A DNA stretch of 32,042 nt, taken from contig CAIJNU010000060.1 of NCBI GenBank assembly GCA_903822115.1, positions 1-32,042 of the forward strand, given 5' to 3'. This DNA comes from an uncultured Candidatus Peregrinibacteria bacterium. GTDB lineage: Bacteria > Patescibacteriota > Gracilibacteria > Peribacterales > Peribacteraceae. Below, one piece after another: positions 1-30,607 of this stretch; position 1 is the first letter of the stretch, and each line of letters begins with the position of its first letter. The notes under the pieces were generated by a model that was not told the DNA's origin, searched no databases, and saw only the letters and a program-made list of their open reading frames with translations. The translations under genes were made by a program, and so were the position numbers.

Positions 1-321
1 CTGATCTAACACTACAAGCTGCCTGTTCACATCATGCATAAATGAGTGGTCAGAATCATATAGAAGAGCTTCCTGATAACTGAGAGGCAAATTGATGTCC
101 GTCTGCTTGAGATCCAAACCTTCCAGATACAGAAATGCTGACCTAATTTCTTTTAGTTCTTTATCCGTTGAGTGATTCAATTTCTTCCATCCATGCTTTT
201 TACGTAAAACAGAAACTGCTTTGAGAAAATCTTTCCGGTTCACGATGCAGCCAACCACATAGGCCGTTGAGGGGTCATAATGTTCAAAATCCGCATCGGT
301 GAAGGTGAGAGGATCTTTCAT
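1..321 (-). CDS. hypothetical protein, partial (runs off left edge; N-terminal 107 codons visible)
   Basis: Minus-strand ATG at 321-319, with the frame open to position 1 (MKDPLTFTDADFEHYDPSTAYVVGCIVNRKDFLKAVSVLRKKHGW...). It is absent from the ORF track because no stop lies inside the window. About 40% GC. No domain recognised. Confidence 0.4.
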   Translation of the reverse strand, partial: MKDPLTFTDADFEHYDPSTAYVVGCIVNRKDFLKAVSVLRKKHGWKKLNHSTDKELKEIRSAFLYLEGLDLKQTDINLPLSYQEALLYDSDHSFMHDVNRQLVVLDQ

Positions 322-326
322 AGTTC

Positions 327-376
327 ACTACGTCACTCTTCCATATTCTAGCCTACGGATGAATTTCTGACGTAGT
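327..376. repeat. perfect 9-bp inverted repeat with 32-bp spacer, directly downstream of the recombinase gene
   Basis: ACTACGTCA (327-335) and its exact reverse complement TGACGTAGT (368-376). The spacer holds a minus-strand TAGAAT (345-350). TAGTTCA also occurs as a direct repeat at 321-327 and 373-379. Confidence 0.5.
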
Positions 377-2176
377 TCAAACCGCGATAGCAAAGTCATT
401 ACGCTGGAAACGGGTCATTTCCCTAATTGAAGCCATTTCCACTTCCATCACCACCACATAGTGAGTTTGAGGACGTGTGTTACCACATGTGTCACCAGAG
501 TGCATAACACTCTTGGTGACTTTATTATGTCTGGGGATCAAAAGCTCAATTCTGACGCGTTCGGGGAAGATTTCGATGCGCATTACGAGTTCTTGGACGA
601 TCCGCCGCTTAGTATCAAAGTCATCGAGTTTTTGAAGTTCCTTGGCATATCGCTTGGCAATTTCCTCTGCCGACATCAGCCGGTCTTTCTTTTCGTCCTC
701 GTCCATTAGTTCACTGCAAATACGATCTCGATCAGAGGTGATCTTCGCCTTCGTATCTTCGATCTCTTTGCCCTTTGCCTCAATCTCGCCATCCTTCTGA
801 TACTTCAGCCCCTTTTCGTAGAGATTGCATGCTCTGACGTATTCTTGATCGAATTCTTCCAGCAATGCGTCACAGGCATCGCGCTCGGCGGTGAGCTTGG
901 GTATGTCGAGTGTTTTTTGCTGCTCTGCCTGTACGCGCTCAATGAACGACTTCGGATCGGCAAGCAGACTTTCTATTTCGCTCCACACCTTCGCTTCCAG
1001 CACTTGCCCAGAAATCTGCCGATTGTTGCATCGTTCCAATGATTTATCAGCTGTTCTCTTGCATCGATAATTGCAATACTCACCGGCCAGAGTTTTTTTC
1101 CCTTTCACCTGCTTCCACTTCGGTTGTATGTAGCCCCCATAGGCAGATTTGCAATCCTGCCGACCGCAATGCACTTTGCCCGACAGAAGATACTCATGCT
1201 TCACGTTGCGCGGTTCACTAACGCTCTGGGCAAGGATTTCTTGGGCTTTCTCCCAAAGTGATCTGTTGATGATTTGAGAGCAGCGTATTGGTCTCCACAG
1301 CTCACGTGGGTTCGCAACATCCTTCTTCTTTTTCGTCTTGGGATCGCGCTTCGTGGTGCGCTTGTTGAAGTAGTATGTACCAGTATAAGCCTCTTGTCGG
1401 AGAATGCGTGTGATCGTTTTCACATGCCAGAAATTAGGGGGGTTCTTTTTACGGAAGCTTTGCATATCAGCCTTTTTCTTTTTGAGTTCTTCAAATTTTT
1501 TATCAGCCTTAGTCGCAATCTTCATACCATTGAGACGCTGTTGGACTTCATAGGCGGTCATCCTGCGTTTTACGTACCAGTTGAAAATCTTTTTCACGAT
1601 CTCCTCCTCTTCGGGATTCACCGACATCTTCTGCGTTGTAGGGTCAACATCGTAGCCATAGGGCGGATACTTCCCCCCTACCCACTTACCAGCCTCTGCC
1701 GCGGCCTCTCGTCCCGATGCGGTACGTTCTAAAATCAGATCACGCTCCATTTCGGCAATAATGCCGAGCAGCCCAAGCATGAATCTCCCCATGTTTGTTG
1801 TGGTGTTGATTTCCGTCTGGGTGGTTGCGATGAAACCTACACCCATTTCAGTGAGATGCTCGATAGCATTCAACAGCAAACGTGTCTTGCGAAAAAAACG
1901 ATCGAGCTTCCAGACCATCACAATGTCGATGTCATTGCGCTTTACTGCATCAAAAAGTCTGGGCAGGGCTTCCCGCTCATCGATCTCTGAAGCGCCCGAA
2001 TACCCAAGATCCTTGTAGGTGTGTTTCGGCTCGAACTGATATTCATCACTGTGCGCTTCGAGCCATTTGAGCATCTGCGACTCCTGCACTTTGTCACCGT
2101 ACTTCTCTGCCTGTTCGTCGCTACTCACGCGAATGTACAAGCCGACTCGTTTTTTGTGCTTCATTACTTCTTTCAT
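377..2176 (-). CDS. large serine recombinase (resolvase/invertase catalytic domain + recombinase domain + zinc ribbon + coiled coil)
   Basis: N-terminus VGLYIRVSSDEQ carries the catalytic Ser motif. IVMVWKLDRFFR matches the resolvase core. A Cys-rich zinc-ribbon-like segment (CGRQDC...CNYRCK) is followed by a long charged coiled-coil tail. At 599 aa this is the large serine recombinase architecture. TAGAAT (2184-2189, minus) lies 7 nt upstream of the ATG. Confidence 0.9.
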   Translation of the reverse strand: MKEVMKHKKRVGLYIRVSSDEQAEKYGDKVQESQMLKWLEAHSDEYQFEPKHTYKDLGYSGASEIDEREALPRLFDAVKRNDIDIVMVWKLDRFFRKTRLLLNAIEHLTEMGVGFIATTQTEINTTTNMGRFMLGLLGIIAEMERDLILERTASGREAAAEAGKWVGGKYPPYGYDVDPTTQKMSVNPEEEEIVKKIFNWYVKRRMTAYEVQQRLNGMKIATKADKKFEELKKKKADMQSFRKKNPPNFWHVKTITRILRQEAYTGTYYFNKRTTKRDPKTKKKKDVANPRELWRPIRCSQIINRSLWEKAQEILAQSVSEPRNVKHEYLLSGKVHCGRQDCKSAYGGYIQPKWKQVKGKKTLAGEYCNYRCKRTADKSLERCNNRQISGQVLEAKVWSEIESLLADPKSFIERVQAEQQKTLDIPKLTAERDACDALLEEFDQEYVRACNLYEKGLKYQKDGEIEAKGKEIEDTKAKITSDRDRICSELMDEDEKKDRLMSAEEIAKRYAKELQKLDDFDTKRRIVQELVMRIEIFPERVRIELLIPRHNKVTKSVMHSGDTCGNTRPQTHYVVVMEVEMASIREMTRFQRNDFAIAV

Positions 2177-2227
2177 TAAAGAAATTCTATAGCCTTTTTG
2201 GCTTGAAATACACCAATTTTTGGCTGC

Positions 2228-2569
2228 TCAACTTCCCTGGCTCTTTAGCAAAGCAGGCTCAAACATCAGAACGAAAGATTTTCTTACGCTCTTCGGACAA
2301 TGTTCGACACCTTTCGGGACCATTCCGATCTCGCCCGCTTTCAGAATCAGATTGGGCTGATCTTTTAGTTGAATAGTGATTTCGCCTTTGTAGACAAAGA
2401 AAAGCTCGTCCTCGTTCTCATGTACATGCCAGTGATATTCACCTTCGAACATTGCCATGCGCACGACTTGATCGTTCACCCGCGCCAATTCAATAGGTGA
2501 CCACGGCACAGTGATCTTTTTTGCTGCCTCTTCGAGATTGGTGGGGAGAAATTGCATAATATTTCTCAA
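2228..2569 (-). CDS. cupin domain protein
   Basis: Two-motif cupin signature GEYHWHVHENEDELFFVYKGE ... GEIGMVPKGVEHCP. The start overlaps the upstream stop (ATGA at 2566-2569), which implies translational coupling. Confidence 0.75.
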   Translation of the reverse strand: MRNIMQFLPTNLEEAAKKITVPWSPIELARVNDQVVRMAMFEGEYHWHVHENEDELFFVYKGEITIQLKDQPNLILKAGEIGMVPKGVEHCPKSVRKSFVLMFEPALLKSQGS

Positions 2570-3261
2570 AGTTCGAATGTAGGTTGCTCTTTATCCAAGA
2601 TTGCAATGCGCGTTTGAGCTTTGCAATATTGCTGAACAAGCTGCGCAAGCTCTTCAAGGATCGACTGCAATTTCTCTTTCGTTAAAGGCGGAAAACCCTC
2701 TACGACGATGATGGCATTCTTTGAGTTGTTCGTGATCTTGGTGCGATCACCTTCCCTCCAATTCAACTTGCGACAAATCACACCCTTATCATCTTTATAC
2801 ACCAGCTCGCCCTTTACCGGAGGATCTTCAGCTGCTTCGCCAAGAGGTAGGAACTGCTCTGTACCTTCTGCGTATGCAAGCCGCACGTCGCCTTCACAGA
2901 GGTCCGTATCCTCTGCACCTGCGCACACCACATAGCGAAGAGAAATGACGTTATACAGGTCTACAAGCGGGTTGATACTTGGTAGCTGGCCTCCCTTCAC
3001 AACGCGTTTGATGAGTGCCTGTGCAGAGGGTGGGAACTTATTCGGGTTATTGCCGAAGCTGCGATGGATTTCATGCATCACTTGAAGATGCGGATGGTCT
3101 TTGAAGGTTTCGAGGGTGGTAGATTTTCGAACTTCTTCCTCCTGCGCTCGCAGCAGGGCAGCTGTCTGCTGCCCTGTATTATCTACATTGGTCGCAACAA
3201 TGACACCAATGGCCATGTCGCGGTGATCTGCCAATACTTTGGGATCAATCAGAAAGTGCAT
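2566..3261 (-). CDS. standalone B3/4 domain protein (PheRS beta-subunit editing-domain-like)
   Basis: LRYVVCAGAEDTD...RLAYAEGTEQFLPLGE...GELVYKDDKGVICRKLNWREGDRTKIT...AIIVVEG resembles B3/4-domain proteins. The ORF opens at 3270. I prefer the ATG at 3261 (MHFLIDPK...) because a minus-strand TACAAT (3269-3274) lies 7 nt upstream. Confidence 0.65.
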   Translation of the reverse strand: MHFLIDPKVLADHRDMAIGVIVATNVDNTGQQTAALLRAQEEEVRKSTTLETFKDHPHLQVMHEIHRSFGNNPNKFPPSAQALIKRVVKGGQLPSINPLVDLYNVISLRYVVCAGAEDTDLCEGDVRLAYAEGTEQFLPLGEAAEDPPVKGELVYKDDKGVICRKLNWREGDRTKITNNSKNAIIVVEGFPPLTKEKLQSILEELAQLVQQYCKAQTRIAILDKEQPTFEL

Positions 3262-3308
3262 ATTTGGCATTGTATAGAAAGGAATGAGTTAAAAGAATGG
3301 GATGAAAT

Positions 3309-3926
3309 TCATTTTTTGGAATGCATGAATTCCACTCGCTCACAGATTCTTCTCGAAAATCTTCCCCATCGAACTAAAGGCTCGGTTCGCAGTATTTCAA
3401 TAATGAATGGCATCGGCATGCCAGCTTGCTTCAACGATTCAACAGCATCAAAAGCTTGTTCAAGTAGATGTTCATATTCGGGTCCAAATATGCGATCAAC
3501 CTTTTCTAGGAGAGAAGGTACCCCATGCAGGGATGACGTATACAATTTCCGAAGATCGGAAATGTAATCGTACAACCCTCCATCAGCCTCTTTTTTTTGT
3601 AATATCGGTTCAATCTCTGTTCGACCAGCATGCCTATAGTAGGCAAGAATTTCGTCCTTTAGGTTCCGATCTGCATCGCCCTGTCGGCGCGCGCGAACAT
3701 TTCTTATGATGCCATCGACAAGTTCCTCATCTGATACTTCCGGGGTGGACTCTGATGGCTCCCAAAGGAAATTCATCGGAGCATGGTTGAAAAATTTCTG
3801 TTGAACGTGCTCTTCCTCGTGTGCGTATATCTTCACCTGTTCCCAAGCAAACGGAAGCTGCATGGCATTTTTTTCTACAGTTACCGCATTCTGCAATGCA
3901 GAGGGCAAACGATTATTATTACTCAC
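3309..3926 (-). CDS. hypothetical protein (start uncertain)
   Basis: The ORF is open to 4049, but its first ~40 codons are Arg-rich antisense of the neighbouring Ig/MBG remnant. Candidate starts are GTG 3926 (AGGAGGA at 3936-3942, minus) and ATG 3863. No domain recognised. Lower GC than the backbone. Confidence 0.4.
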   Translation of the reverse strand: MSNNNRLPSALQNAVTVEKNAMQLPFAWEQVKIYAHEEEHVQQKFFNHAPMNFLWEPSESTPEVSDEELVDGIIRNVRARRQGDADRNLKDEILAYYRHAGRTEIEPILQKKEADGGLYDYISDLRKLYTSSLHGVPSLLEKVDRIFGPEYEHLLEQAFDAVESLKQAGMPMPFIIEILRTEPLVRWGRFSRRICERVEFMHSKK

Positions 3927-3986
3927 TATTGCAAATCCTCCTGATCGCCCAGAGCGAAGGCGTTCTTTTTCTGATAGTTCCTGTGA

Positions 3987-4643
3987 AGCCTGGGCACGGC
4001 TACCGTCTCTCACGGAAGCGGTATGTCGGTCGTCTCGACGCTGATGCATGCTGGAACGTACAGCATGACTGCGATATACGGAGGAGATAACAACTACGCC
4101 ACGGCGACATCCGCTGCACAGAGTTTGACAGTAAATAAGTATGCACTCACGGTCTCAGCGATAAGCCAATCGAAAATCCACAACGACGGCGATCCAAACT
4201 TCACCTACCAGATCACGAGTGGCACTCTTGTGGGAAGCGATACCCTCACAGGCACCCCAACGCGAACGAGCGGTGAAGATGATGGGGCCTATGACATCAC
4301 GCAGGGGTCAGTGAGTGCCAGCAATGATTACACTCTCACCTTCGTGAATGGGACATTGACCATCAAGACTCTGGCGGGGGGAAGTGGTAGTGGCGGAGGT
4401 GGAGGCGGTGGAGGAGGCGGAGGAAGAAGTAGTTATACCCCTCCCATATCATCCCCATCAGTGACCTCGCCTCCCCCGAGCGGCGGTACTGTGAACGCCC
4501 ACCAAGAGACGCTGGTCCAGAGAATCGGAAGGCGACTTGCACATGCACCTGATGCGGTCATTGAGCGATTCTCAAGGACCCTCGCCCGCCGCCTGCACAC
4601 GGACGCTGCGACCATCAAAGGTCTGCTGATGAGCGGCAGGTAA
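3987..4643 (+). pseudogene. 5'-truncated surface protein remnant: partial Ig-like repeat + MBG-type domain + poly-Gly linker + C-terminal tail
   Basis: The frame opens only at 3987, after the in-frame TGA at 3984-3986, with no signal peptide. It begins mid-repeat: GTATVS...AGTYSMTAIYGGDNNYATATSAAQSLTV matches the Ig-repeat consensus seen in the 23968-25227 protein. YALTVSAISQSKIHNDGDPNFTYQITSGTLVGSDTLTGTPTRTSGEDDGAYDITQG...YTLTFVNGTLTI then matches the MBG-domain pattern. The first ATG is at 4023. Confidence 0.6.
4377..4424 (+). repeat. GGN/AGT simple-sequence tract encoding GGSGSGGGGGGGGGGG
   Basis: Eleven consecutive Gly codons at 4392-4424, preceded by GGSGS, read directly from the sequence. 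Confidence 0.8.
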
Positions 4644-4691: not shown

Positions 4692-4769
4692 CTCTCATTA
4701 CTCTCGAAATGAATGTTCTCAAGAAAGAAAACGGAGGTCGTGATCACCAAAATCCCCTATACTCCTCCC

Positions 4770-5492
4770 ATGACGAAGTCAGTCTTAGTCTGTCTGCATG
4801 GATGGGGTGGATCCGGGGAGTCCTTCACCGAATTACACCAGGCTCTCGCAGGTAGCGGCATCGAAATCCTGACGCCGGACCTCCCGGGGTTCGGCGCTGA
4901 ACCTGAGCCTGCGAAGCCATGGTGCGTGGATGATTATGCTAAGTGGGTCGAAGCCTGGGTGAAGGAACACGCCGCCGATTCCCCGATCCAACTTCTCGGC
5001 CACTCGCACGGCGGAAGAGTCGCGATCAAGATCGCCGTGAACGGCAATCTGAAGATCGATCACCTCTACCTCTGCGCCGCCGCCGGTATTCCCCATCGAC
5101 GTAGGATGAGGAGAGCAGTAGGTTTTTTTCTCGCAAAGATCGGACGATTCCTCCTTTCTCCGTTCGGCTCCACATTCGCCGCCGGGGGGAAGAAGCTCCT
5201 CTACAAACTCTTCCGCGTACACGACTTCGAGAATGCCTCCGTCGTCATGCGGGAAACGATGATCAAGGTTTCCGGGGAAGATCTCCGACCGATCCTGCAT
5301 GACATCAACGTTCCCACGGACATCTTCTGGGGCACGGAAGACACCATGACGCCAGTTGCCGATGCAAAAGTAATGCACGAGGCCATCGAAGGCAGCGTGC
5401 TCCATCTCTATCCCGGGGTGCGGCATCGCGTCCACAGGGATCGCACGCGGGAAATCGCGGCCATTATTATCGAACGCAGCCGAATTTCGTGA
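4770..5492 (+). CDS. alpha/beta hydrolase fold protein
   Basis: VLVCLHGWGGSGESF (oxyanion region), the nucleophile elbow LLGHSHGGRVA (GHSxG) and a C-terminal HxxH region. The ORF opens at 4713. I prefer the ATG at 4770 (MTKSVLVCLHGWGG) because TATACT (4758-4763) lies 6 nt upstream. Confidence 0.8.
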   Translation: MTKSVLVCLHGWGGSGESFTELHQALAGSGIEILTPDLPGFGAEPEPAKPWCVDDYAKWVEAWVKEHAADSPIQLLGHSHGGRVAIKIAVNGNLKIDHLYLCAAAGIPHRRRMRRAVGFFLAKIGRFLLSPFGSTFAAGGKKLLYKLFRVHDFENASVVMRETMIKVSGEDLRPILHDINVPTDIFWGTEDTMTPVADAKVMHEAIEGSVLHLYPGVRHRVHRDRTREIAAIIIERSRIS

Positions 5493-7081
5493 GAGAACCG
5501 ACTGTCCTTGGACTCCTCGGGATCCTCGAAATCCTCTATGCTGTGCCCATCTCCACGAGAATAATCCTCATCGGCCTCTCTCTCCTCGCGTCCCTGTCAC
5601 CTCTCTGCACCTTCGCGTCGTTTTGGCAGATAAAAGAGTGGCGCTGGGACCGCCTGAGAGAGCACGTGAAGCGCGAGGGGATCGTCGTCCTCTTCTCCCT
5701 CTCCCGACTCGCCTTGCTCGCCACAGCCGTTGTCTTTGTTGCGGCGCAAATCACCACTTCGCTCAATGCACTCGTCGCACTTCTGTCACTTCTGACGATT
5801 ATCGGGATTGTCCAGGTATCGATGCGCAGACAACCCTTTCCCGTATGGACTTCCAAAGCGATGGTCCTGACAGGCGTCGCCATTGTCGCCGACTTCCTCC
5901 TGGCCATCATCCTCGCACCTTCGGCCGCGAAACTCTCTCTCGGTCTTCTTCCGTTTCTGCAGTTTCTGATCCTTGCGACGGCCTGGTCACTGTTCTATCC
6001 ACTCGACCGATACTTGAAAGCGAAGACAATCCGGCAGGCAACGTCGCTGCGCGTAAAGTTCCCGCACCTGCGTGTCATCGGAGTGACGGGAAGCGTGGGA
6101 AAGACCACGACGAAGGAGCTCCTCGCACACATTCTCGGCGATCTCCACCCTCTCTCGACCCCGGCTCATGTGAATTCGGAGCTGGGAGTGGCGCGGTGGC
6201 TGCTCTCTATTCTTTCGAAAACGCAGCACGATTCTTCGCAACCGGTCATTGTCGAGATGGGAGCCTACCGAAGCGGAGAAATCGCGACGCTCAGCCGAAT
6301 GGCTCAACCTATCTACGGCGTCATCACCTTTATCGGTTCACAGCATCTGGCGCTATTCGGCTCGAGGGAGGCGCTCATCGCAGCCAAGGGAGAACTCCTG
6401 GAATCGCTGCCGGTGTCGGGAAAGGCCTTCATCAACGGGGACAGTGATGCGAGCCTGCAGACACGCCATCTCTGCGTGTGCCCCGTGGTCGTTGTGGGAA
6501 CCGGAGAACGAGCGGATGACATTGCGACGGAGATCGAAGAGATGAGGAATGGATTGAAGTTCAAATTCGGCCAGACGATGTTCACCGTCCCCCTCCACGG
6601 CACGCACAATGTCGCGAACGTGCTCCTCGCCATCGAAGTCGCAAAGGAGCTGGGACTGCGCGAGGAGCGCATTGCGGAGAAACTGAAGACATTCGCCCCC
6701 CTCCACCAGACATTCGAGGTTCGAGAGGAGAGGGGCATCACCATTCTCGACGACACGCACAACTCCAGCGCCGCGAGCTTCCAGGCTGCGATCACGTGGG
6801 CCGACGCACAACCCTTCGAGCGGAAGGTGCTTCTCTCAAGCGGCATCATCGAGCTCGGTGAAGAGAGTGCACGAACGCACCGGGAGCTGGGATCGCTTGC
6901 TTCAGACGTATTCGATGCCGCGTTCTTCCTCGATCGCAAGAGTGCAGAGCTCTTCCGTGCGGGATTTGAGAAGAGCGTAAGTATGCTCACCAAAGACGCA
7001 CCCACCCTTTCGACTTCGACACTTCTCGTCTGCGTCGGAAGAATACCGCCTGAGAGCATTCGCATTTTGTTACCGAAGTAA
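5489..7081 (+). CDS. MurF-like Mur-family ligase with N-terminal polytopic membrane domain
   Basis: Residues 1 to ~185 form about 6 hydrophobic helices. After them come the Mur-ligase P-loop VIGVTGSVGKTTTKELLAHIL, the central domain, and a C-terminal LDDTHNSSAASFQAAITWA (compare MurF DDxYNANPxS). The GTG start overlaps the upstream stop (GTGA at 5489-5492). Confidence 0.75.
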   Translation: MREPTVLGLLGILEILYAVPISTRIILIGLSLLASLSPLCTFASFWQIKEWRWDRLREHVKREGIVVLFSLSRLALLATAVVFVAAQITTSLNALVALLSLLTIIGIVQVSMRRQPFPVWTSKAMVLTGVAIVADFLLAIILAPSAAKLSLGLLPFLQFLILATAWSLFYPLDRYLKAKTIRQATSLRVKFPHLRVIGVTGSVGKTTTKELLAHILGDLHPLSTPAHVNSELGVARWLLSILSKTQHDSSQPVIVEMGAYRSGEIATLSRMAQPIYGVITFIGSQHLALFGSREALIAAKGELLESLPVSGKAFINGDSDASLQTRHLCVCPVVVVGTGERADDIATEIEEMRNGLKFKFGQTMFTVPLHGTHNVANVLLAIEVAKELGLREERIAEKLKTFAPLHQTFEVREERGITILDDTHNSSAASFQAAITWADAQPFERKVLLSSGIIELGEESARTHRELGSLASDVFDAAFFLDRKSAELFRAGFEKSVSMLTKDAPTLSTSTLLVCVGRIPPESIRILLPK

Positions 7082-7112: not shown

Positions 7113-8348
7113 GTGTCACGCGTCATCCATCACTCATTCGGCCCTCTCGCAGATGCTGACCAGCAACGCTTGGCGTGGCATCTTATCCTAAACCCCCACA
7201 TGCTGAAGACGGAGCACGCACGCGAAGAATTGCGCTCATCGCTCGCCACAAGCGGGAAAGGCGACGCCTCTCTCTTCGCCTCCGGCAGAGAAGGCCTCCT
7301 CGCACTGCTTCGCGCATGCGAATTTCCCACGGGATCCGAAGTGATCGTCCAAGCGTACACATGTGTCGTGGTTCCCAACGCCATCCACGCCGCGAAACTC
7401 ACGACGATCTACGCGGACATTGAAAAAGAGACGCTCAATATCGACCCTTCATCTCTCGAATCCATCATCACTCCTCGCACGAAAGCTGTCATCTGCCAGC
7501 ACACCTTCGGCATTCCCGCAGATGTCCAGAAAATTCGAGAAATTTGCGACAAGAATGGGCTGATGTTGATCGAAGATTGCGCGCACGTTCTCCCCGATGC
7601 ACTTGGCCCCGAGGAAATCATGAGTCTCGGCGATGCCATGCTCTTGAGTTTCGGAAGGGACAAAGCCATCTCGGGCGTCAGCGGCGGAGCGATCATCTGC
7701 CGCAAAGAAACAGTCTCCCATCGACTGCAGAAACTGGAGAAATCCGCCATTCCCCTGCCCCCGAGCACTATTCGCCGCCTCCTCCTCTACCCCATCTTCT
7801 ATGGACTCGCGCGACCGCTGATGGGATTGGGCCTCGGGAAAGCGCTCCTCACACTCCTGCGACAATTGCGCTTGCTTGTACCCATTGTCACAGCACAGGA
7901 GAAAGAAGGTCGGCAGGATGCGACACTCCATCAGATGCCGGAGGCATGTGCGATATTGGCACTCCAGCAATGGAAGAAGCTGCAGAAGATCAACGATCAT
8001 CGACGATCCCTCACACGATACTATCTAGAGGCTTCGGCGCAGATAGGTTGGCCGGTGCTCCACGGTGTTCGCTCCGATCTCCCGTTGCAGAAGTACCCGA
8101 TGTTCGTGCGTGATGCAGAGGGGATCAGGCGCGCACTCAAGAAGAAGAACATTCACCTCCATGACGGCTGGACGGGTTGCGTCGTCTGTCCCGCGTCCGC
8201 AGATCAGGGAAAAACAGGATACTGTGAGGGAAACGACAGAAATGCCGAAGAGGTCGCCGAGGAGATCCTCTCTCTTCCCACACATCCGGGAATGACGGAA
8301 GAGGATACGAAGAGGCTTGTGAGTGCCCTGACGCCGTTTCTTCGGTAG
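7113..8348 (+). CDS. DegT/DnrJ/EryC1/StrS-family PLP-dependent aminotransferase
   Basis: FASGREGLLALLRA...GSEVIVQAYTCVVVPNAI...AVICQHTFGIPADV...LIEDCAHVL...SFGRDKAISGVSGGAI contains the PLP-Lys motif. GTG start, with TACACT (7101-7106) 6 nt upstream. Confidence 0.85.
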   Translation: MSRVIHHSFGPLADADQQRLAWHLILNPHMLKTEHAREELRSSLATSGKGDASLFASGREGLLALLRACEFPTGSEVIVQAYTCVVVPNAIHAAKLTTIYADIEKETLNIDPSSLESIITPRTKAVICQHTFGIPADVQKIREICDKNGLMLIEDCAHVLPDALGPEEIMSLGDAMLLSFGRDKAISGVSGGAIICRKETVSHRLQKLEKSAIPLPPSTIRRLLLYPIFYGLARPLMGLGLGKALLTLLRQLRLLVPIVTAQEKEGRQDATLHQMPEACAILALQQWKKLQKINDHRRSLTRYYLEASAQIGWPVLHGVRSDLPLQKYPMFVRDAEGIRRALKKKNIHLHDGWTGCVVCPASADQGKTGYCEGNDRNAEEVAEEILSLPTHPGMTEEDTKRLVSALTPFLR

Positions 8349-8357
8349 CATAGCAAC

Positions 8358-9419
8358 ATGGAAATTCGCCCCGCCACCGATCCCCTCTCTTGGGACAGTT
8401 TCCTCCTGTCGCAACAATTTCGTCCGTTCCTTCAGAGTTGGACGATGGGCGAGGTGTACCGGGACATCGGACAGGAACCGATCCGACTGGAGGCACAGCA
8501 AGACGGGAAGACCATCGGCATCTGCTTCGCGCACATCGTCCACGCGAGGCGCGGCAGACATCTATCCGTGCCCTACGGCCCCGTTGTCGCATCGCAGGAG
8601 GCGCTGACGGCGCTCCTCGAAGCACTGACGAAAGTGGCGCAAGATCACCAGTGTGCATTCGTTCGCATCAGTCCGTTCTGGCCGTCTTCCTCCCCCTTCA
8701 TCCACAACCTCCCGTCATCATCGCTATCTTCTCCGCTCCATCTCCTCGCAGAGCACCTCTGGTATCTTCCGCTTCGCTCACCTGATGTCTGGGACCCAAC
8801 GCCCGCTGCTGACCACGAAGAAGGTACGAGAATCACAGAGGAAGCTTTGATGGCAGGAATGCGCTCAACAGCCCGAAATCTCATTCGACGTGCGAAGAAG
8901 GAGGGCGTTACCGTGACGCGATCAATGGATCCAGTCACCGATCTCCCCTCTTTCCTCAATCTCCACGATGAGACGAGACGACGCCACCACTTCACACCGT
9001 ACTCCACGTCATTCTTCCGCGCCCAGGTCTCCCGATTCGCGCGCTCGGGCAACGTCGCCCTCTACCTCGCGCACTACCAAGGAGAGGTGATTTCCGCCTC
9101 CATCCACATGATATTCGGCGGCGAAACCAGCTACCACCACGGCGCGAGCACGCTCAAGTACCGAAACATTCCCTCGAGCTACCTGCTCCAGTGGACCGCC
9201 ATCTGCGATGCGCTCGAGAGAGGAGATCGCGTCTACAACTTCTGGGGTGTCTCTCCGGAAGGCGCGAAGAAGCATCCTTTCGCCGGCGTGCGCACCTTCA
9301 AGACCGCTTTCGGAGGGAATCTGCTGGAGATCGCACACTGCAGGGACATTCCCCTCTCTCCGCTCTACCATCTCACGCGCGCCGTCGAAACGTGGCGCAA
9401 GTGGCGACGGGGTTTTTGA
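8358..9419 (+). CDS. FemAB-family (aminoacyl-tRNA-dependent) peptidoglycan peptide-branch transferase
   Basis: FLQSWTMGEVY..., RSTARNLIRRAKKEGVTV, LHDETRRRHHF, LYLAHYQGEVISASIHMIFGGETSYHHGAS and SSYLLQWTAICDALERGDRVYNFWGV follow the FemX/FemA/FemB pattern. TAGCAT (8346-8351) lies 6 nt upstream of the ATG. Confidence 0.85.
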   Translation: MEIRPATDPLSWDSFLLSQQFRPFLQSWTMGEVYRDIGQEPIRLEAQQDGKTIGICFAHIVHARRGRHLSVPYGPVVASQEALTALLEALTKVAQDHQCAFVRISPFWPSSSPFIHNLPSSSLSSPLHLLAEHLWYLPLRSPDVWDPTPAADHEEGTRITEEALMAGMRSTARNLIRRAKKEGVTVTRSMDPVTDLPSFLNLHDETRRRHHFTPYSTSFFRAQVSRFARSGNVALYLAHYQGEVISASIHMIFGGETSYHHGASTLKYRNIPSSYLLQWTAICDALERGDRVYNFWGVSPEGAKKHPFAGVRTFKTAFGGNLLEIAHCRDIPLSPLYHLTRAVETWRKWRRGF

Positions 9420-9436: not shown

Positions 9437-9757
9437 ATGAAGCAAGAAGAAGCCCTGACCAACGAGGAGAGGCTCGACAGGATTCTCCTCCACCTGGAGC
9501 GTCTCGATCGCCGAGACAAGATACGAACGTGGGGCGGGCTCGTTCACGGTATCCTCTCGCTCATCCCCACCGTGCTCCTCCTCTTGGGGCTCTGGTACTT
9601 TTACAATAATAGTGCGGCAATCATGCAATCCATTACGCAGCAAGCTGCGCAACAGGCGGCCGCCGTCGCATCGGGCATCCAAAAGGGAGCGGCTGTCTCC
9701 CTCCCAATCACTCCAGATGTGATCAAGCAATTGAAGCAAGCACTACACCTAAAATAA
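9437..9757 (+). CDS. small single-pass membrane protein, hypothetical
   Basis: MKQEEALTNEERLDRILLHLERLDRRDKIRTWGG, then the TM helix LVHGILSLIPTVLLLLGLWYFY, then a Q/A-rich tail. The track ORF from 9191 overlaps femAB. ATG 9437 has TATGCT (9425-9430) 6 nt upstream. Confidence 0.55.
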   Translation: MKQEEALTNEERLDRILLHLERLDRRDKIRTWGGLVHGILSLIPTVLLLLGLWYFYNNSAAIMQSITQQAAQQAAAVASGIQKGAAVSLPITPDVIKQLKQALHLK

Positions 9758-9801: not shown

Positions 9802-11262
9802 TTACTTCACCAAGTGCAACACATCATCCGGCGTCATGGTTGGGGACACTGAGAAACTTGGCATGCTGAGGAATTGGCTGCGATTGACCTGCTTGTCCGG
9901 AATATTGCCGATACCGAAAAGGTAGCCGGCAGCAGCAGCCGTCTGCGCGACGCGGTCATTCACGCCGCCCTGCGGATAATCGATGGCAAAGACCGGCTTC
10001 GCCGTCATGTCCTCGAGGAGCTTGCGACTCTCCTGCACCTCCAGCGTCACCTGCGCATCTGTGAGCGCGCGCAGATCTTCGCCCGAGTGCCCCGCCGACT
10101 GGACATCGTATCCATTGGCGATGAGCGTGAGGAGCGTCTTCTGGGTAATGCCCGTAAGACCAACCTCTTTCGTCTGAATGAAGAACGTCGCCGGCACGCC
10201 AGCCGCCGAAAGCGCGTCAGATGCCGCCCGAATATTGCTCGCATTCAAGCCCTCGATCGCGACGACAACCGCCTTCGATGGAAGGCGCACATCCTTTGCT
10301 TCCTGCTGGATCACAATTTGTTGTACGTCTCGCATGAGAAGGAAGGTCAATCCCGCATTTTTCAGTTTCTGAAGTTGTGCGGGAAGGTTTTGCAATATGA
10401 CACTCTGACTCACGTCAAACTGGAGAATAGGAAGCGTAAATTTCTCCTGACGCACGATGAACGTCGGAGAGAACGACGCAATGTAGTCCATGGATACGTA
10501 AGCTTCCTTGCCATCAAATGAAATGCGCGCCCATCCCTTGTTGATCGAGAGAGGATGAAGGAATGTCAGATTGGGAATTTCCCCTATTTTCGCGCTCTTG
10601 GGATCCGCTTTCTGTCTAACATTCACATGAGCGTAGTGCACATAGTAGAGATTCGCGTACGGCTTCTTCTCATCAGCCAGACGATCACTCGTCGTGAGTC
10701 TTCCGAGGTACGTGATCGCGACGTATCCCGTCTGCCCGTCAGACATCTGTACTTTCGCCCATCCCGCATTCACGAATTCCACCACCGTCACCGCATCCCC
10801 GCGATTAAATCGGCCGATCTCCTTCCCCGAGACACTCGGCGACGACCGAATATTAAGAAACGAATTTGTAACCCTATAGACATTCCCCTGATCGACCGTC
10901 CCGCTCGCCCTCAACCCCTCATACTGCTTCACCATGGAGAGATCCAGAACCGGCGGTGCCTCCACTGCTGTTCCGCTCCCCGTCGTCGTATCCAAAGGAG
11001 CGAGAGAGGAAGCGACTGCGGTTCCGCTCGCCGTTCCAAGCCCCTGAGACGCCAAGCGTTGGAAACGAGCGATGTCCTGCTCGGTAAACGTGAGATTGTT
11101 CGCGTTCGAACCGGAAGACGTGGGAGGCTTCACAGGCGCGCTGCTACATCCCGCAAACAGAATGCCAAACGAGGCAATGAGGAGGAACGCCACGAGGGGT
11201 GCGACGAACGAGAATCGTTGGGCGCGCCTCGGGACTGCGCGGCGGGAACGGTAGCGAACCAT
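9802..11262 (-). CDS. lipoprotein with two SH3b domains and a C-terminal polysaccharide deacetylase (NodB/CE4-like) domain
   Basis: Signal peptide with lipobox (LLIASFGILFAGCSS). Two SH3b-like units (YRVTNSFLNIRSSPSVSGKEIGRFNRGDAVTVVE...GWAKVQMSDGQTGYVAITYL and YVHYAHVNVRQKADPKSAKIGEI...GWARISFDGKEAYVSMDYI). The C-terminal region ATFFIQTKEVG...ANGYDVQSAGHSGEDL is deacetylase-like. Confidence 0.7.
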   Translation of the reverse strand: MVRYRSRRAVPRRAQRFSFVAPLVAFLLIASFGILFAGCSSAPVKPPTSSGSNANNLTFTEQDIARFQRLASQGLGTASGTAVASSLAPLDTTTGSGTAVEAPPVLDLSMVKQYEGLRASGTVDQGNVYRVTNSFLNIRSSPSVSGKEIGRFNRGDAVTVVEFVNAGWAKVQMSDGQTGYVAITYLGRLTTSDRLADEKKPYANLYYVHYAHVNVRQKADPKSAKIGEIPNLTFLHPLSINKGWARISFDGKEAYVSMDYIASFSPTFIVRQEKFTLPILQFDVSQSVILQNLPAQLQKLKNAGLTFLLMRDVQQIVIQQEAKDVRLPSKAVVVAIEGLNASNIRAASDALSAAGVPATFFIQTKEVGLTGITQKTLLTLIANGYDVQSAGHSGEDLRALTDAQVTLEVQESRKLLEDMTAKPVFAIDYPQGGVNDRVAQTAAAAGYLFGIGNIPDKQVNRSQFLSMPSFSVSPTMTPDDVLHLVK

Positions 11263-11294: not shown

Positions 11295-13001
11295 TTACAT
11301 GCGGTCGGGAAGTCGCAGGGTGAGGAGTTCCGCGCCGGTGCGCAGCACATCCGCCATCTCCCGCGTGAGCGTGAGTCGAAAATCCCTCTGATCGCTCTCG
11401 GCCTTGAGGATGGGCTCACGGTTGTAGAACGCGTTGAAATCCTGACAGAGCTGAAAGAGATAATTGGCAAGCTTATGCGGCATGCGCGTCTCACGCGCAT
11501 CTTCGAGCACCGACGGAAAGAGGAGGAGTGTCTTGAGAAGGAGCCGCTCCGTCTCCGCGAGCACTTCGATGTCGTCGGGAAATTGTTGCTTTTCGTTCGC
11601 GTCGCCCTTTCTGAGAACGGAACGAGCCCGCGCGTGCGTGTACTGCAGGTAGGGGGCGCTGTTCCCCTCGAAACTGAGGAACTTGTCCCAATCGAACACC
11701 ATGTCCATCTTCCGATTCTGGCTAAGAATTCCGTACGCTACGGCTCCTACTCCCATCATCTCGGCGAGCGCCGCTTCGTCATCCGTCTGAATCGTCTCAC
11801 GGTGATCCGCAATCACCTGCTTCGCGCGCGTCACCGCCTCGTCGAGCACCTCCTCGAGCTTGAGGATGTTGCCCTTGCGCGTGCTCATCTGCCGATCGAT
11901 GAAGCGCATGCGTCCGAAGATCACGTGTTCCATCACCGGAAGATCCCACTCCAACAGCTTGAGCGTGGCAAAGAGCTGCTGGAAATACTGCTGCTGCGCC
12001 ACGTCAACGACGTAGAGAATCTCAAGCGGATGCCACGTATCGATGCGGTAGCGGGCAGTGGCCAGATCCCGCGTGAAGTAAATCGTTGAGCCGTCCGCTT
12101 TCAGCACGATTGCCGGGGGGAGCTTCGTCTCCTCGGGAAATTCCACGATCAACGCCCCCTCCTTCCCAATCGTGAAGAGCTTCTTCGCTTTCCCCTCCTC
12201 GAGGATCGGCGCCATCTTATCCTCGTAAAAGCTCTCGCCCTGTACGAGGTCGAACGTCACGTGCAATCGTTCGTACGGACGTTGCATGGATCGCATCGTG
12301 ATGCCGACAACCGTCTCCCAGAACGTCCGGAGATCGCTCTGTCCCTGCTCGAGATCACGGAAAGCCAATCGCGCCTCTTCTTCCAGCGACTCATCTTTCT
12401 CTGCTTCATCGTGAAATTTCACGTAGAGGCCAAGGAGCTCGTCAAGCGTGTACTGCTCTATGGGCTTGGTTCCCCAACGCCGAAATGCAACGGCGAGTTT
12501 CCCGAATTGTGTCCCCCAATCGCCGATGTGATTGATAGCAATCGCGTTGTAGCCGGCATTCCTGTAAATATTGGTGATCGCCTGACCGACAATGGTGCTG
12601 AGAAGGTGATGAACGCCGAGGGGTTTGGCGATGTTGGGGTGGGAGTAATCCAATACGACATTCTGCTTCTTGCGCTGATTTGCCTTCACACTCTCGACAT
12701 GCGCCTTGCGCGATGCGGAGAGTTCGCGAAGGAGAGCCGCCGGCTTGAGCCACACGTTCACGTAACCGGTTCCCGCCACCTCTGCACGCTCCACCTCTGG
12801 AAGCTTCGAAAGCTCTTGCGCAAGAGACTTTGCAACCACCATGGGCTTCTCTCCGATGTTCTTGGCTAGGGAAAGCGCAATGCTCGTCGATGCATCTCCC
12901 CTCTGGGATTCTCTCGGACTTTGCCACTGCACTATTGCGTCGGAGACTCCATACGTTTTTTGGAGAAATTCCTGTGCCCGCATTGTAAGAAATCCAAACA
13001 T
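11295..13001 (-). CDS. argS: arginine--tRNA ligase
   Basis: Class I HIGH region (DYSHPNIAKPLGVHHLLSTIVGQAI), the MSTRKG motif, a DALR-type anticodon-binding C-terminus ending in ...RM, and a typical length of 568 aa. An alternative start is M7 at 12983. Confidence 0.95.
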   Translation of the reverse strand: MFGFLTMRAQEFLQKTYGVSDAIVQWQSPRESQRGDASTSIALSLAKNIGEKPMVVAKSLAQELSKLPEVERAEVAGTGYVNVWLKPAALLRELSASRKAHVESVKANQRKKQNVVLDYSHPNIAKPLGVHHLLSTIVGQAITNIYRNAGYNAIAINHIGDWGTQFGKLAVAFRRWGTKPIEQYTLDELLGLYVKFHDEAEKDESLEEEARLAFRDLEQGQSDLRTFWETVVGITMRSMQRPYERLHVTFDLVQGESFYEDKMAPILEEGKAKKLFTIGKEGALIVEFPEETKLPPAIVLKADGSTIYFTRDLATARYRIDTWHPLEILYVVDVAQQQYFQQLFATLKLLEWDLPVMEHVIFGRMRFIDRQMSTRKGNILKLEEVLDEAVTRAKQVIADHRETIQTDDEAALAEMMGVGAVAYGILSQNRKMDMVFDWDKFLSFEGNSAPYLQYTHARARSVLRKGDANEKQQFPDDIEVLAETERLLLKTLLLFPSVLEDARETRMPHKLANYLFQLCQDFNAFYNREPILKAESDQRDFRLTLTREMADVLRTGAELLTLRLPDRM

Positions 13002-14207: not shown

Positions 14208-16370
14208 GTGGCAAACACACCTCCAATCCCAAAGGCCCCCCACACTCCTCCCCCGCTCCTCGTCGCCATCGACGATCTGCTGGGTCTCCATAACCAAGCC
14301 GAGACCGCACTGACGAAAGGGAACGAAGGAGAAACGCTCACGCCCGCCGAACGCGAATCCATCAAGCACTACGAGGAAGGATTGCAGAAAATCCTCGATA
14401 TCATCGCACCCTCCGCCATGGAGATTCGCAATACGGAGATCCTCCTCAATGATCAGTTCGTGCGGACGCTCTACGTGTACAACTGGCCGAACTACATCTT
14501 CCCCAACTGGCTCTCGCAACTCGTGAACACCGACGCGCAGATGGAGATCTCGCAGTTCATCTACCCCTCAAGCAACAAAGCCATCCTGAAAATGCTCCGC
14601 AAGAAAGTCGTGGAATTGCGATCATCGATCCGCATGCTCGAACAGCGCGGCATCGTCCGCGATCCGTCGCTCGAGGCGGCACTGCAGGACGCCGAAGAGC
14701 TTCGGGATCTGCTCGCACGAGGCCGCGAAAAGCTCTTCCAGCTCGGCATGTACGTCACGATCTACGCCGAGGACGAGGAGAAGCTCAAGAAGCTGCAGAC
14801 GGACATCGAATCGATGCTCGGAGGAAAGCTCGTACTCACGCGGCCGTCATACTTCCAGATGGAGCACGCGTTCACGTCGACACTCCCGCTGTGTCTCGAC
14901 GAACTGGAGATCAACCGCAACATGAACACGTCGCCGCTCTCGACGAGCTTCCCCTTCTCCAGCTCCGACCTCACGAGCGACCACGGAATTCTCTACGGCA
15001 TCAACCGCCACAACGAAAGTCTCGTCATCTTCGACCGCTTCGATCTACCCAATGCGAACGCAAACGTGTTCGCCATCTCCGGCGCAGGAAAATCGTTCGC
15101 GGTGAAGCTCGAGATTCTGCGCTCGCTCATGCTCGACACCGAAGTGCTCGTCGTCGATCCGGAGAACGAGTACGTCGACCTCTGCAAGACCGTCGGCGGA
15201 TCGTTCGTTCCCCTCTCGCTCCAGAGCTCCCTGCACCTCAACCCCTTCGATCTACCGCGCGCCGTTCGCGGAGAGGAAGCGGAGACGGGAGAAGTGCTGC
15301 GCGCGGCCACCATCAACCTCCACGGACTCTTCAAGCTCATGCTCGGCAGCCTGACGCCCGCGGAAGATGGCATCTTGGACAAGGCAATCATCGACACCTA
15401 CGCGCTCAAGGGCATCGCTCTCACGACGCCCAACCCCGGCAGCAACGAACCGCCCACGCTCCACGACCTCGTCGACGTACTCCTGACAACGGAGGGCGGC
15501 GAGAACATGGCAAAGGTGCTCCAGAAGTACACAGCCGGAAGCTACGCGGGCATCTTCGATCAGCAGACGAACGTGAAGATGGAGAACCAGCTCGTCGTCT
15601 TCCAGATTCGCGATCTCGAGGAGCAGCTGCGTCCCATCGCGATCTACATCGTGCTGAACTTCCTCTGGAATAAGGTGCGAAGCGAACTCAAGAAGCGCTA
15701 TCTCGTCATAGATGAAGCGTGGAACCTGATGCAACACGAGGATTCCGCGCGCTTCCTCTTCGGCATCGTGAAGCGGGCGCGCAAGTACTTCCTCGGCATC
15801 ACGACGATCACGCAGGACATCGAAGACTTCGTGAATTCGCCCTACGGAAAACCGATCATCACGAACTCCTCGCTCCAGATCCTCCTGCGCCAGTCCCCCA
15901 CCGCCGTCGACAACCTCCAGAAACTCTTCTACCTCACGGAGGGTGAGAAGTACGTCCTTCTCAACTCCGGCATCGGGCAGGGAATCTTCTTCGCCTCCAA
16001 CAAGCACGTCGCCATCGAGATCATCGCGAGCCCCTCGGAGGCGGCGATCATCACCACGAAGCCGGAGGAAATCCTCGCGAAGCGTGCGGAGCAGGCCATC
16101 GTGGAGCGAGAGAAAGTCATCCAGGCACGCAAGCAGGGCGTCGATGCCCAGAACGTCAATCTCCCGCTCGCTTCAGTGCAACCGTCAACTCCGACTGCGG
16201 CACCGACCCCCGTCCCCGAGGGCCATCCCGCAACTGAACCGGTCCCGCTCACGCCTTCCACACCCGTCCCAACACCGACACCCCCTGCGGAAAAAAAGAC
16301 AGAGCAGCCGCAAACATCTGCGACACCGCTGACCCAGGTGACGCCACCACCGGAAGCGATGCCTCAGTGA
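14208..16370 (+). CDS. virB4: VirB4/TraC/PrgJ-like type IV secretion ATPase with Pro/Thr-rich C-terminal tail
   Basis: Walker A FAISGAGKSFAVK, LHLNPFDL, Walker B RYLVIDEAWNLM and ITTITQDIEDF. The N-terminal region is typical of Gram-positive-type VirB4 (RTLYVYNWPNYIFPNWLSQL). The last ~68 aa (about 16164-16367) are P/T/A-rich low complexity. Confidence 0.85.
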   Translation: MANTPPIPKAPHTPPPLLVAIDDLLGLHNQAETALTKGNEGETLTPAERESIKHYEEGLQKILDIIAPSAMEIRNTEILLNDQFVRTLYVYNWPNYIFPNWLSQLVNTDAQMEISQFIYPSSNKAILKMLRKKVVELRSSIRMLEQRGIVRDPSLEAALQDAEELRDLLARGREKLFQLGMYVTIYAEDEEKLKKLQTDIESMLGGKLVLTRPSYFQMEHAFTSTLPLCLDELEINRNMNTSPLSTSFPFSSSDLTSDHGILYGINRHNESLVIFDRFDLPNANANVFAISGAGKSFAVKLEILRSLMLDTEVLVVDPENEYVDLCKTVGGSFVPLSLQSSLHLNPFDLPRAVRGEEAETGEVLRAATINLHGLFKLMLGSLTPAEDGILDKAIIDTYALKGIALTTPNPGSNEPPTLHDLVDVLLTTEGGENMAKVLQKYTAGSYAGIFDQQTNVKMENQLVVFQIRDLEEQLRPIAIYIVLNFLWNKVRSELKKRYLVIDEAWNLMQHEDSARFLFGIVKRARKYFLGITTITQDIEDFVNSPYGKPIITNSSLQILLRQSPTAVDNLQKLFYLTEGEKYVLLNSGIGQGIFFASNKHVAIEIIASPSEAAIITTKPEEILAKRAEQAIVEREKVIQARKQGVDAQNVNLPLASVQPSTPTAAPTPVPEGHPATEPVPLTPSTPVPTPTPPAEKKTEQPQTSATPLTQVTPPPEAMPQ

Positions 16371-30599: not shown

Positions 30600-30607
30600 G
30601 TGACAAG

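Follow-up and report, generated by a model that had tools for sequence, protein, structure and literature searches.

A MurF-type ligase with a predicted membrane domain in place of its soluble N-terminal domain in a large group of candidate phyla radiation bacteria

MurF is viewed as a soluble, three-domain, universal enzyme and an antibiotic target, and its reaction is the textbook last cytoplasmic step in the synthesis of the peptidoglycan precursor. In a 32,042-nucleotide (nt) stretch of DNA from an uncultured Candidatus Peregrinibacteria bacterium, which was analysed as a whole and is here called the window, we find an open reading frame (ORF) for a MurF-type ligase whose soluble UDP-binding N-terminal domain (N-domain) is, judging from sequence comparison and a structural model, swapped for a membrane domain of five transmembrane (TM) helices. 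The protein is probably the housekeeping MurF of a large group of bacteria in the candidate phyla radiation (CPR)/Patescibacteria, rebuilt as an integral membrane enzyme in which two conserved cytoplasmic motifs serve the acceptor end of the reaction. Its gene stands in a cassette with genes for an alpha/beta hydrolase, a DegT-type aminotransferase-like protein and a FemAB-like transferase. The MurF ligase core is known; the membrane domain and the cassette appear to be new, and no description of a membrane-embedded MurF or of a hydrolase/DegT/FemAB cassette was found in the full-text literature, a search that left most subscription journals outside its scope. Throughout, positions are those of the window and residue numbers those of the 530-amino-acid (aa) window protein; the features discussed are collected in Table 1.

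Ligase and membrane domains of the window protein

The best NCBIfam model for the protein is TIGR01143 (murF), to which residues 184-491 align at profile positions 65-373 of 418. Since the alignment begins at profile position 65, the MurF N-domain is without a counterpart. When the family profile was compared with PDB sequences, MurF entries came out on top (4cvk at 7e-48, then 4ziy, 4qdi, 1gg4 and 3zl8), in alignments that begin only at chain residues ~90-114. A Foldseek search of the PDB with the whole AlphaFold2 (AF2) model returned MurF 4qf5 (E 1e-23, TM-score 0.69 over 381 columns), and both by sequence and by fold MurF ranks before MurE, MurC, MurD, MurT and CphA. The P-loop, which the original prediction had put at about 6066, is the sequence GVTGSVGKT at 6080-6106. 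Its residues G198-K205, together with K209, N229, G233 and E256, are kept in the TM-type proteins and in 75 canonical MurFs, as are H286, the carbamoyl-lysine position K300, E302, N316 and D318; in the C-terminal domain (C-domain), TM-type MurF retains D422, E455-L-G457 and H464. By sequence, the middle and C-terminal domains are of the MurF type, with the catalytic residues present.

A Kyte-Doolittle scan found six hydrophobic segments before the P-loop (residues 4-20, 24-43, 64-85, 92-112, 122-143 and 149-170). They match the helices from which the original prediction had drawn a membrane domain of about six helices; that number has to be lowered by one, as the first segment is not conserved. 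Residues 1-21 have a column conservation of 0.06 and, at this low-confidence N-terminal end, an AF2 predicted local distance difference test (pLDDT) score of 50-62; the starts of homologues mostly align with window residue ~22-30. With residues 1-21 non-conserved, the number of conserved TM helices therefore falls to five. Translation from an in-frame GTG at 5543 (V19) would yield 512 aa and a start matching the homologues, and on this basis this codon may be the true start of the ligase. Residues 1-18 are either a lineage-specific sixth helix or, if translation begins at 5543, untranslated. No obvious Shine-Dalgarno sequence was seen before GTG 5489 or before GTG 5543, and both are candidate starts.

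The AF2 model of the ligase, made from a 26-sequence alignment, has a mean pLDDT of 90.7 and a predicted TM-score (pTM) of 0.84. Residues 21-189 are all helical in it (21-48, 53-63, 71-85, 91-111, 122-142 and 148-189), and the last helix, a single long one, enters the first strand of the ligase at pLDDT >90. No alpha/beta N-domain is hidden in residues 1-189 of the model. A concealed soluble domain of the normal MurF kind, which structure prediction might have revealed within residues 1-190, was thus ruled out: AF2 gives helices only, and no profile match begins before position 61-71. The central claim of the original prediction, a MurF-like ligase with a membrane domain in place of the N-domain, is borne out by the profile, the PDB alignments and the model alike. 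Modelled alone, the membrane domain reached pLDDT 89 and pTM 0.80; Foldseek gave this model no significant fold match in the PDB (best E = 1.4, TM-score 0.36), and a Pfam search with residues 22-190 at E <= 1 returned noise only and no family.

Topology was read from the distribution of basic residues in 199 family members, the set from which the conservation values for the two motifs below are also taken. Mean Lys+Arg counts are 4.5, 3.0 and 6.2 in the predicted cytoplasmic segments, and 0.1, 0.6 and 0.4 in the N-tail (5.8 aa on average) and the two outer loops. This distribution therefore argues for an outside N-terminus, five TM helices and a cytoplasmic ligase. Over both tiers of homologues, the near-invariant residues of the membrane domain are confined to two motifs, WQxKE(Y/W)RxDR and PxxTxK; the outer halves of the TM helices are variable, and the membrane-embedded halves are poorly conserved. 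In the first motif, which is invariant in one alignment (A1), seven of eight positions are conserved at >=94% and position 51 is Tyr in 81%; in the second, P118, T121 and K123 are conserved at 99%, 97% and 86%. The stalk that follows TM5 (K+R = 6.2) carries A184, 99% conserved in the TM-type family, and R188, 87% conserved in canonical MurF. Both residues belong to the linker helix of canonical MurFs too, and therefore only the alpha/beta part of the N-domain has been replaced.

Table 1. Coordinates of the ligase gene, its domains and motifs, and the adjoining genes of the cassette
Feature	Position	Strand	Details
Alpha/beta-fold serine hydrolase, cassette gene 1	4713..5492	+	Pfam Abhydrolase_1, 5e-24
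Membrane-embedded MurF-type ligase (predicted)	5489..7081	+	530 aa from GTG 5489, or 512 aa if the start is GTG 5543
N-terminal hydrophobic extension, residues 1-18	5489..5542	+	Non-conserved
Five-helix TM domain, residues 24-170	5558..5998	+	Conserved; N-out/C-in; from hydropathy, AF2 and positive-inside counts
Motif 1, WQIKEWRWDR (consensus W46-Q47-x-K49-E50-(Y/W)51-R52-x-D54-R55)	5624..5653	+	Cytoplasmic end of TM1
Motif 2, PVWTSK (consensus P118-x-x-T121-x-K123)	5840..5857	+	Cytoplasmic TM3-TM4 loop
Basic stalk helix, residues 171-192	5999..6064	+	TM5 prolonged into the cytoplasm; matches the last (linker) helix before the MurF middle domain
Mur ligase middle (ATP-binding) domain	6071..6643	+	Pfam PF08245 Mur_ligase_M, residues 199-385, 1e-31
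Mur ligase C-terminal domain	6713..7078	+	Weak PF02875 Mur_ligase_C, residues 409-490, 22 bits, below cut-off
DegT/DnrJ/EryC1-type pyridoxal phosphate (PLP) aminotransferase-like protein, cassette gene 3	7113..8348	+	Pfam 2e-45
FemAB-family (aminoacyl-tRNA-dependent) transferase-like protein, cassette gene 4	8358..9419	+	Pfam FemAB 3e-33
Small single-pass membrane ORF	9437..9757	+	106 aa; directly after FemAB; Peribacteria only

Homologues, the MurF slot and the gene cassette

A first homologue search gave 1355 matches; the best 120 of these are ~440-585 aa long, cover 79-98% of the query, and carry the names Candidatus Peregrinibacteria, Peribacteraceae, Peribacter riflensis or Patescibacteria. 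A profile of the N-domain alone, searched against 1.84 billion cluster representatives, identified 348 clusters (50% identity), 57 of them at E <= 1e-30. The full-length matches are nearly all 500-550 aa with the domain at the N-terminus, and the short ones resemble contig-end fragments. Among the 348 clusters we found no stand-alone TM domain and no other fusion partner, and three longer proteins (P0128, P0334 and P0275) are without an extra Pfam domain. The distant tier of matches (N-domain E 1e-14 to 1e-7), which includes Candidatus Kerfeldbacteria as well as Peregrinibacteria, likewise consists of MurF-type ligases without the MurF N-domain, scoring 183-268 bits against TIGR01143 from profile positions 61-71.

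The same layout is common to the 284 full-length homologues examined (117 first-tier and 167 second-tier), so that orthologues of the fusion do exist and the TM region is not a separate upstream ORF, a point left for checking when the fusion was first proposed. In these 284 proteins the P-loop lies at residue ~180-188 and is preceded by mostly 4-5 hydrophobic 19-mers; in 76 presumed canonical MurFs of other phyla it lies at about residue 110, and 71 of the 76 lack any hydrophobic 19-mer ahead of it. L014 (CAYQCH010000019.1), counted among the 76, had seemed to be a canonical MurF nested in the TM-type clade; closer inspection showed that its gene is of the TM type and stands in a full cassette, and it was removed, which left the canonical set of 75. 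The metagenome-assembled genome that holds it is labelled 'uncultured Gammaproteobacteria bacterium', and its flanks (SerRS, AspRS-type, M23 and GluRS genes) have the Kerfeldbacteria-type synteny of loci L090 and L092; the contig is probably mis-binned or mislabelled. When the ligase domain alone was used for a neighbour-joining tree, the 71 TM-type proteins sampled all fell in one clade, apart from the canonical MurFs. By sequence, TM-type MurFs form a large group across the CPR that takes in Peregrinibacteria/Peribacteria, Kerfeldbacteria and relatives. Databases label these proteins plain MurF, and such automatic annotation hides both the membrane domain and the cassette.

The place of the protein in the Mur pathway was assessed in the complete per-gene table for the genome RIFOXYC2_FULL_PER-ii_58_32 of Peribacter (PMC4736985, supplementary file 2). 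K01929/murF appears in one row only, gene _591 (511 aa, 655856-657388), which passes the KEGG K01929 hidden Markov model (HMM) at 257 against a threshold of 122.9 (PMC4736985, supplement). Its neighbours on the two sides are _590, an alpha/beta hydrolase, and _592, which is a DegT aminotransferase, and it is therefore the orthologue of the window ligase. The table also lists a single murA, murB, murC, murD, murE, murG, mraY and ftsW, plus penicillin-binding proteins (PBPs) and a DacC-type D,D-carboxypeptidase. With one K01929 row beside this full Mur set, the TM-type protein by elimination fills the MurF slot; as read from gene content, it is the housekeeping MurF and not a side paralogue. The original prediction had drawn an analogy with MurT; the role of an accessory, MurT-like homologue does not fit the only MurF of a complete genome.

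A second, soluble MurF nearby was considered and rejected: the Mur ligase found 4-8 kb upstream in relatives is MurD (TIGR01087, 276 bits), in company with the epimerase MurL. In three Peribacteria loci (L001:3282-6140, L003:1-2539 and L004:269-2870) MurL is directly followed by MurD. The MurL match (NF041275) scores 407 bits, below the 700-bit cut-off, and in the 2016 Peribacter table MurL appears only as a weak mnmA match or a hypothetical protein. On sequence grounds the pair represents the MurD2/MurL route, in which L-Glu is added and then epimerised.

The cassette was followed with HMMs built from the recurring cassettes named below and scored on 72 non-redundant TM-type loci, from an input that included 80 loci of the N-domain-only metagenome scan, and partners were counted over loci with enough flank. 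Downstream of the ligase, a DegT-like gene is present in all 51 loci counted for it and a FemAB-like gene in all 47, which upholds the idea that orthologues always adjoin such genes; in two loci FemAB is fused to DegT, one of them (L005) encoding a single 801-aa protein. The hydrolase is directly upstream in 46 of 63 non-redundant loci; 8 others have it on the same strand but farther away in the upstream direction, and in 9 it was not seen within the available flank. None of the 75 canonical murF loci (median 16.8 kb) has a hydrolase, DegT or FemAB partner. The order hydrolase-ligase-DegT-FemAB recurs in Peribacter riflensis (L001, L002), in L003 (a 1.38-Mb contig) and in L004 (GCA_002772745), and also in the distant loci L005, L007/L008 and L009, in L090 of Kerfeldbacteria, in L091 (a 1.34-Mb contig), L092 and L014; the short contig L006 holds the hydrolase, the ligase and the start of a third ORF only. 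Beyond the cassette, flanks differ from locus to locus.

Junctions between cassette genes are mostly -14 to +16 nt, a spacing as in a translationally coupled operon. In the window the GTG start of the ligase ORF overlaps the TGA of the hydrolase ORF (a GTGA arrangement). The original prediction had noted this overlap correctly and had concluded from it that the two proteins are co-expressed stoichiometrically; as no more than 46 of the 63 loci have the hydrolase right next to the ligase, that conclusion does not hold universally. The DegT-like protein retains the Schiff-base lysine motif SFGRDK, and among solved structures it is nearest to nucleotide-sugar aminotransferases and dehydratases. 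The FemAB-like protein is nearest to S. aureus FemA (1lrz) and FemX (6snr), both matched at 1e-9, and its best NCBIfam match, a weak one, is the exopolysaccharide-locus type TIGR03019. The invariant linkage of DegT and FemAB genes to the ligase points to a CPR-wide precursor-tailoring module not yet described. The 106-aa ORF that follows is possibly an accessory gene. It has ~98-aa relatives at L001:14869-15168, L003:15710-16006 and L004:13888-14181, with an LDRRDxLRTxGG motif and then a TM helix; no relative was seen in the distant cassettes.

Wall enzymes are often found near the cassette: M23 peptidase, Amidase_3 with PG_binding_1, PBP2/MreC/MreB, an FtsQ-like protein and an SH3-polysaccharide deacetylase. 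In the window the last of these is secreted, combines two SH3 domains with a polysaccharide deacetylase domain (9802-11262, -), and is convergent to the cassette and kept there in Peribacteria; in other lineages M23 or Amidase_3 enzymes hold that position. Genes for aminoacyl-tRNA synthetases also recur beside the cassette, namely ArgRS in Peribacteria (window 11295-13001, -) and SerRS, AspRS-type and GluRS in Kerfeldbacteria-type loci. Their proximity may be relevant, aminoacyl-tRNA being the expected substrate of the FemAB partner, or it may be due to chance. Downstream of ArgRS, a VirB4/TraC-like ATPase with a TraG P-loop domain (14208-16370, +) is syntenic in all Peribacteria loci examined.

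Three further observations concern the rest of the window. Positions 1-4000 have a low GC content (0.46-0.48 against 0.55-0.59 elsewhere), carry a large serine recombinase (377-2176, -) and a B3/4-domain protein, and take the place of the MurL-MurD...GrpE region that lies upstream of the hydrolase in L001, L003 and L004; this segment appears to be a mobile element that has inserted here or the result of a rearrangement. The ORF at 21180-21848 (-) encodes a type IV secretion pilin-like protein. At the right end, adjacent ORFs for Sulfotransfer_3-family and arylsulfotransferase-like proteins (29544-30716, - and 30608-31984, -) are unusual for a small CPR genome.

Acceptor and pathway

As we picture the reaction, the ligase would be held in the cytoplasm against the inner membrane face, where WQxKE(Y/W)RxDR and PxxTxK would do the work of the lost N-domain: at the membrane surface they would hold the acceptor, a MurNAc-tripeptide, by its pyrophosphate end. 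ATP would activate the terminal carboxylate of the peptide, the C-terminal dipeptide would be added by the ligase, and the product could be used on the spot by MraY and the FemAB-like partner. This suggests an undescribed arrangement in which a wall-building step takes place at the membrane. The simplest candidate for the acceptor is UDP-MurNAc-tripeptide, which falls a little short of an even chance and is slightly likelier than a lipid-linked substrate. The motifs offer Lys/Arg plus Glu/Asp, Trp/Tyr, Gln and Thr; such polar and aromatic residues, invariant in the membrane domain and turned towards the cytoplasm, would equally suit a new UDP site or a pyrophosphate site.

Several points weigh against a housekeeping MurF of this kind. 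The TIGR01143 score of 205.9 bits lies below the curated cut-off of 288.6 and thus below the family threshold. The canonical loop GNxNNxxGxP is altered in the TM-type proteins, with N227 and N230 lost and P235 changed to Ala, and substitutions are found at C-domain positions where canonical MurF is 91-100% conserved: Y424 (100% in canonical MurF), G451, M453, D511, K516 and S518 (to Arg). With these C-domain positions and the loop altered, contacts to the amino-acid substrate or the acceptor may therefore differ from those of textbook MurF. Sole-MurF status was checked in one complete genome. The Peribacter table has no 'racemase' entry, and its only ddl match is sub-threshold (gene _834, 467 aa, 22 bits against 126.4); the supply of D-Ala-D-Ala in Peribacter is therefore unaccounted for. 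Given the altered C-domain and the missing Alr and Ddl, the donor may be other than ordinary D-Ala-D-Ala. Finally, the role of the two motifs in holding the acceptor is one that we infer, and ligase activity on MurNAc-tripeptide is for all members a prediction, both from sequence.

A lipid-linked acceptor is the strongest alternative, a possibility that we rate tentatively, below even and a little under the UDP-linked one. MraY would first move phospho-MurNAc-tripeptide to undecaprenyl phosphate and the ligase would then add the dipeptide to lipid I/II-tripeptide, with the polyprenyl tail among the TM helices and the pyrophosphate on the basic cytoplasmic motifs; the late steps of peptidoglycan synthesis would thereby be reordered. 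The UDP-binding N-domain is wholly gone, and it is likewise missing from MurT, which alone in the Mur family is known to have lipid II as its substrate. In complexes of MurE and MurF the substrate has its pyrophosphate at the boundary where the N-terminal domain meets the middle domain, and with lipid II as the substrate this boundary would be at the membrane surface (PMC6113224). Here that boundary is joined to a TM helix, and a lipid-linked acceptor is therefore geometrically natural. Five TM helices exceed the need of a mere tether, the GNxNNxxGxP loop is altered, and of the two solved proteins nearest to the FemAB partner, FemA and FemX, the latter is deposited as a lipid II:glycine glycyltransferase. 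Yet the membrane-embedded halves of the helices are poorly conserved, and the invariant residues are polar, acidic, aromatic and basic and stand on the cytoplasmic face, as would be expected of a nucleotide site too. An ordinary single-copy mraY is kept, and the normal substrate of its product is UDP-MurNAc-pentapeptide; a TM domain as such does not identify the acceptor, since MurT and FemXAB handle lipid II without any; and the family of the DegT-type partner acts on soluble nucleotide sugars. An extended form of this proposal, in which the stem peptide is completed and tailored on lipid I/II by the membrane MurF in a complex with the DegT-like and FemAB-like enzymes, perhaps with a donor route that bypasses Alr and Ddl, we rate somewhat lower still.

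It is less probable by far that the cassette makes a product other than the stem peptide, such as an amino-acid-decorated amino sugar or an envelope glycan. DegT would then supply the amine, FemAB would aminoacylate it and a recruited MurF-like ligase would extend the carboxylate, while the peptidoglycan would either stop at a tripeptide or depend on an unrecognised enzyme for its completion. The linkage of the ligase to a nucleotide-sugar-type aminotransferase and FemAB, which is 100% and includes DegT-FemAB fusions, would be accounted for, as would the changes at canonical-invariant C-domain positions, the lack of a racemase or credible Ddl in the Peribacter table, and the TIGR03019 match of the FemAB protein, weak though it is; in some loci GT-C (PMT_2) glycosyltransferases or a polysaccharide deacetylase are close by. 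But the ligase is the only MurF-type gene beside single-copy murA-E, mraY and murG and the PBPs, its MurF score far exceeds that of every other Mur-family model, and the D-Ala-D-Ala carboxypeptidase of Peribacter needs a D-Ala-D-Ala-type terminus. The neighbours, too, are peptidoglycan enzymes (M23, Amidase_3 with PG_binding_1, PBP2/MreBC and FtsQ-like). A frameshift or misassembly joining a membrane ORF to a truncated murF, for which one could cite only the ambiguous start (GTG 5489 or GTG 5543, neither with an obvious Shine-Dalgarno sequence), can be dismissed, as the architecture is continuous in the 284 independent full-length homologues from many assemblies and sources, complete genomes included, and AF2 runs one helix from TM5 into the ligase at pLDDT >90.

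If, as we think probable, these bacteria have as their sole MurF an integral membrane protein whose acceptor-side domain is new, then the N-domain of a Mur ligase is replaceable, and the family offers a natural test case for acceptor recognition in the Mur-ligase superfamily. It also makes a question testable: does the hand-over from UDP to lipid always come after the pentapeptide is formed? Should the lipid-linked proposal prove true, the late peptidoglycan pathway would be re-ordered. At least Peribacter appears to be without the usual enzymes of D-Ala supply. To our knowledge, the walls of the CPR carriers have never been chemically analysed.

Comparison with known systems

Canonical MurF (UDP-MurNAc-tripeptide:D-Ala-D-Ala ligase; TIGR01143, K01929; 1gg4, 4cvk, 4qf5, 3zl8) is the closest relative. 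The window protein shares its middle and C domains at ~26% identity and a TM-score of ~0.7, with the P-loop, Mg-binding Glu/His, carbamoyl-lysine position, adenine-binding N/D and linker helix all present, and like canonical MurF it is the only such gene in a genome carrying the rest of the Mur pathway. It differs in that the alpha/beta N-domain is absent and a five-TM domain with invariant motifs of its own stands in its place, in the changes to the GNxNNxxGxP loop and several invariant C-domain residues, in forming a separate clade, and in its setting, which is the hydrolase/DegT/FemAB cassette instead of the division and cell wall (dcw) context murE-murF-mraY.

MurT, of the MurT/GatD lipid II amidotransferase, is also a Mur-ligase homologue without a UDP-binding N-domain, and its nearest structures are MurFs. 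It works at the membrane on a lipid-linked precursor and so provides a model for a Mur ligase that has lost this domain. Unlike the window protein, which replaces the N-domain, MurT simply lacks it. MurT is also free of any TM domain, has DUF1727 as its C-domain, depends on the glutaminase GatD, and catalyses an amidation, not the ligation of an amino acid. Against the MurT model NF052464 (cut-off 800) the window protein reaches 19 bits, Pfam finds no DUF1727 in it, and no GatD-type neighbour was seen in the loci examined. Among the families to which the original prediction had looked, the protein scores best as MurF.

The poly-gamma-glutamate synthase PgsB/CapB is a Mur-ligase-superfamily ATPase with an N-terminal membrane anchor, and the window protein resembles it in having the N-terminus of such an ATPase in the membrane. 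PgsB/CapB differs in its single anchor helix, its substrate, a growing poly-Glu chain, and its partners PgsC and PgsA. Against the PgsB model TIGR04012 the window protein scores 16.8 bits (cut-off 222.7), and it has no PgsC or PgsA neighbours.

The MurD2/MurL pathway is a conceptual parallel only, as another rewired cytoplasmic step of peptidoglycan synthesis; it occurs in the same Peribacteria genomes, a few kb upstream (L001, L003, L004). Cassette gene 4 belongs to the family of the FemX/FemAB and MurM/N branch-peptide transferases. We know of no fem genes in a fixed operon with murF and a DegT-type aminotransferase, or fused to the latter. The FemX of W. viridescens acts directly on the MurF product UDP-MurNAc-pentapeptide, so that MurF followed by FemX is a known pair of consecutive steps.

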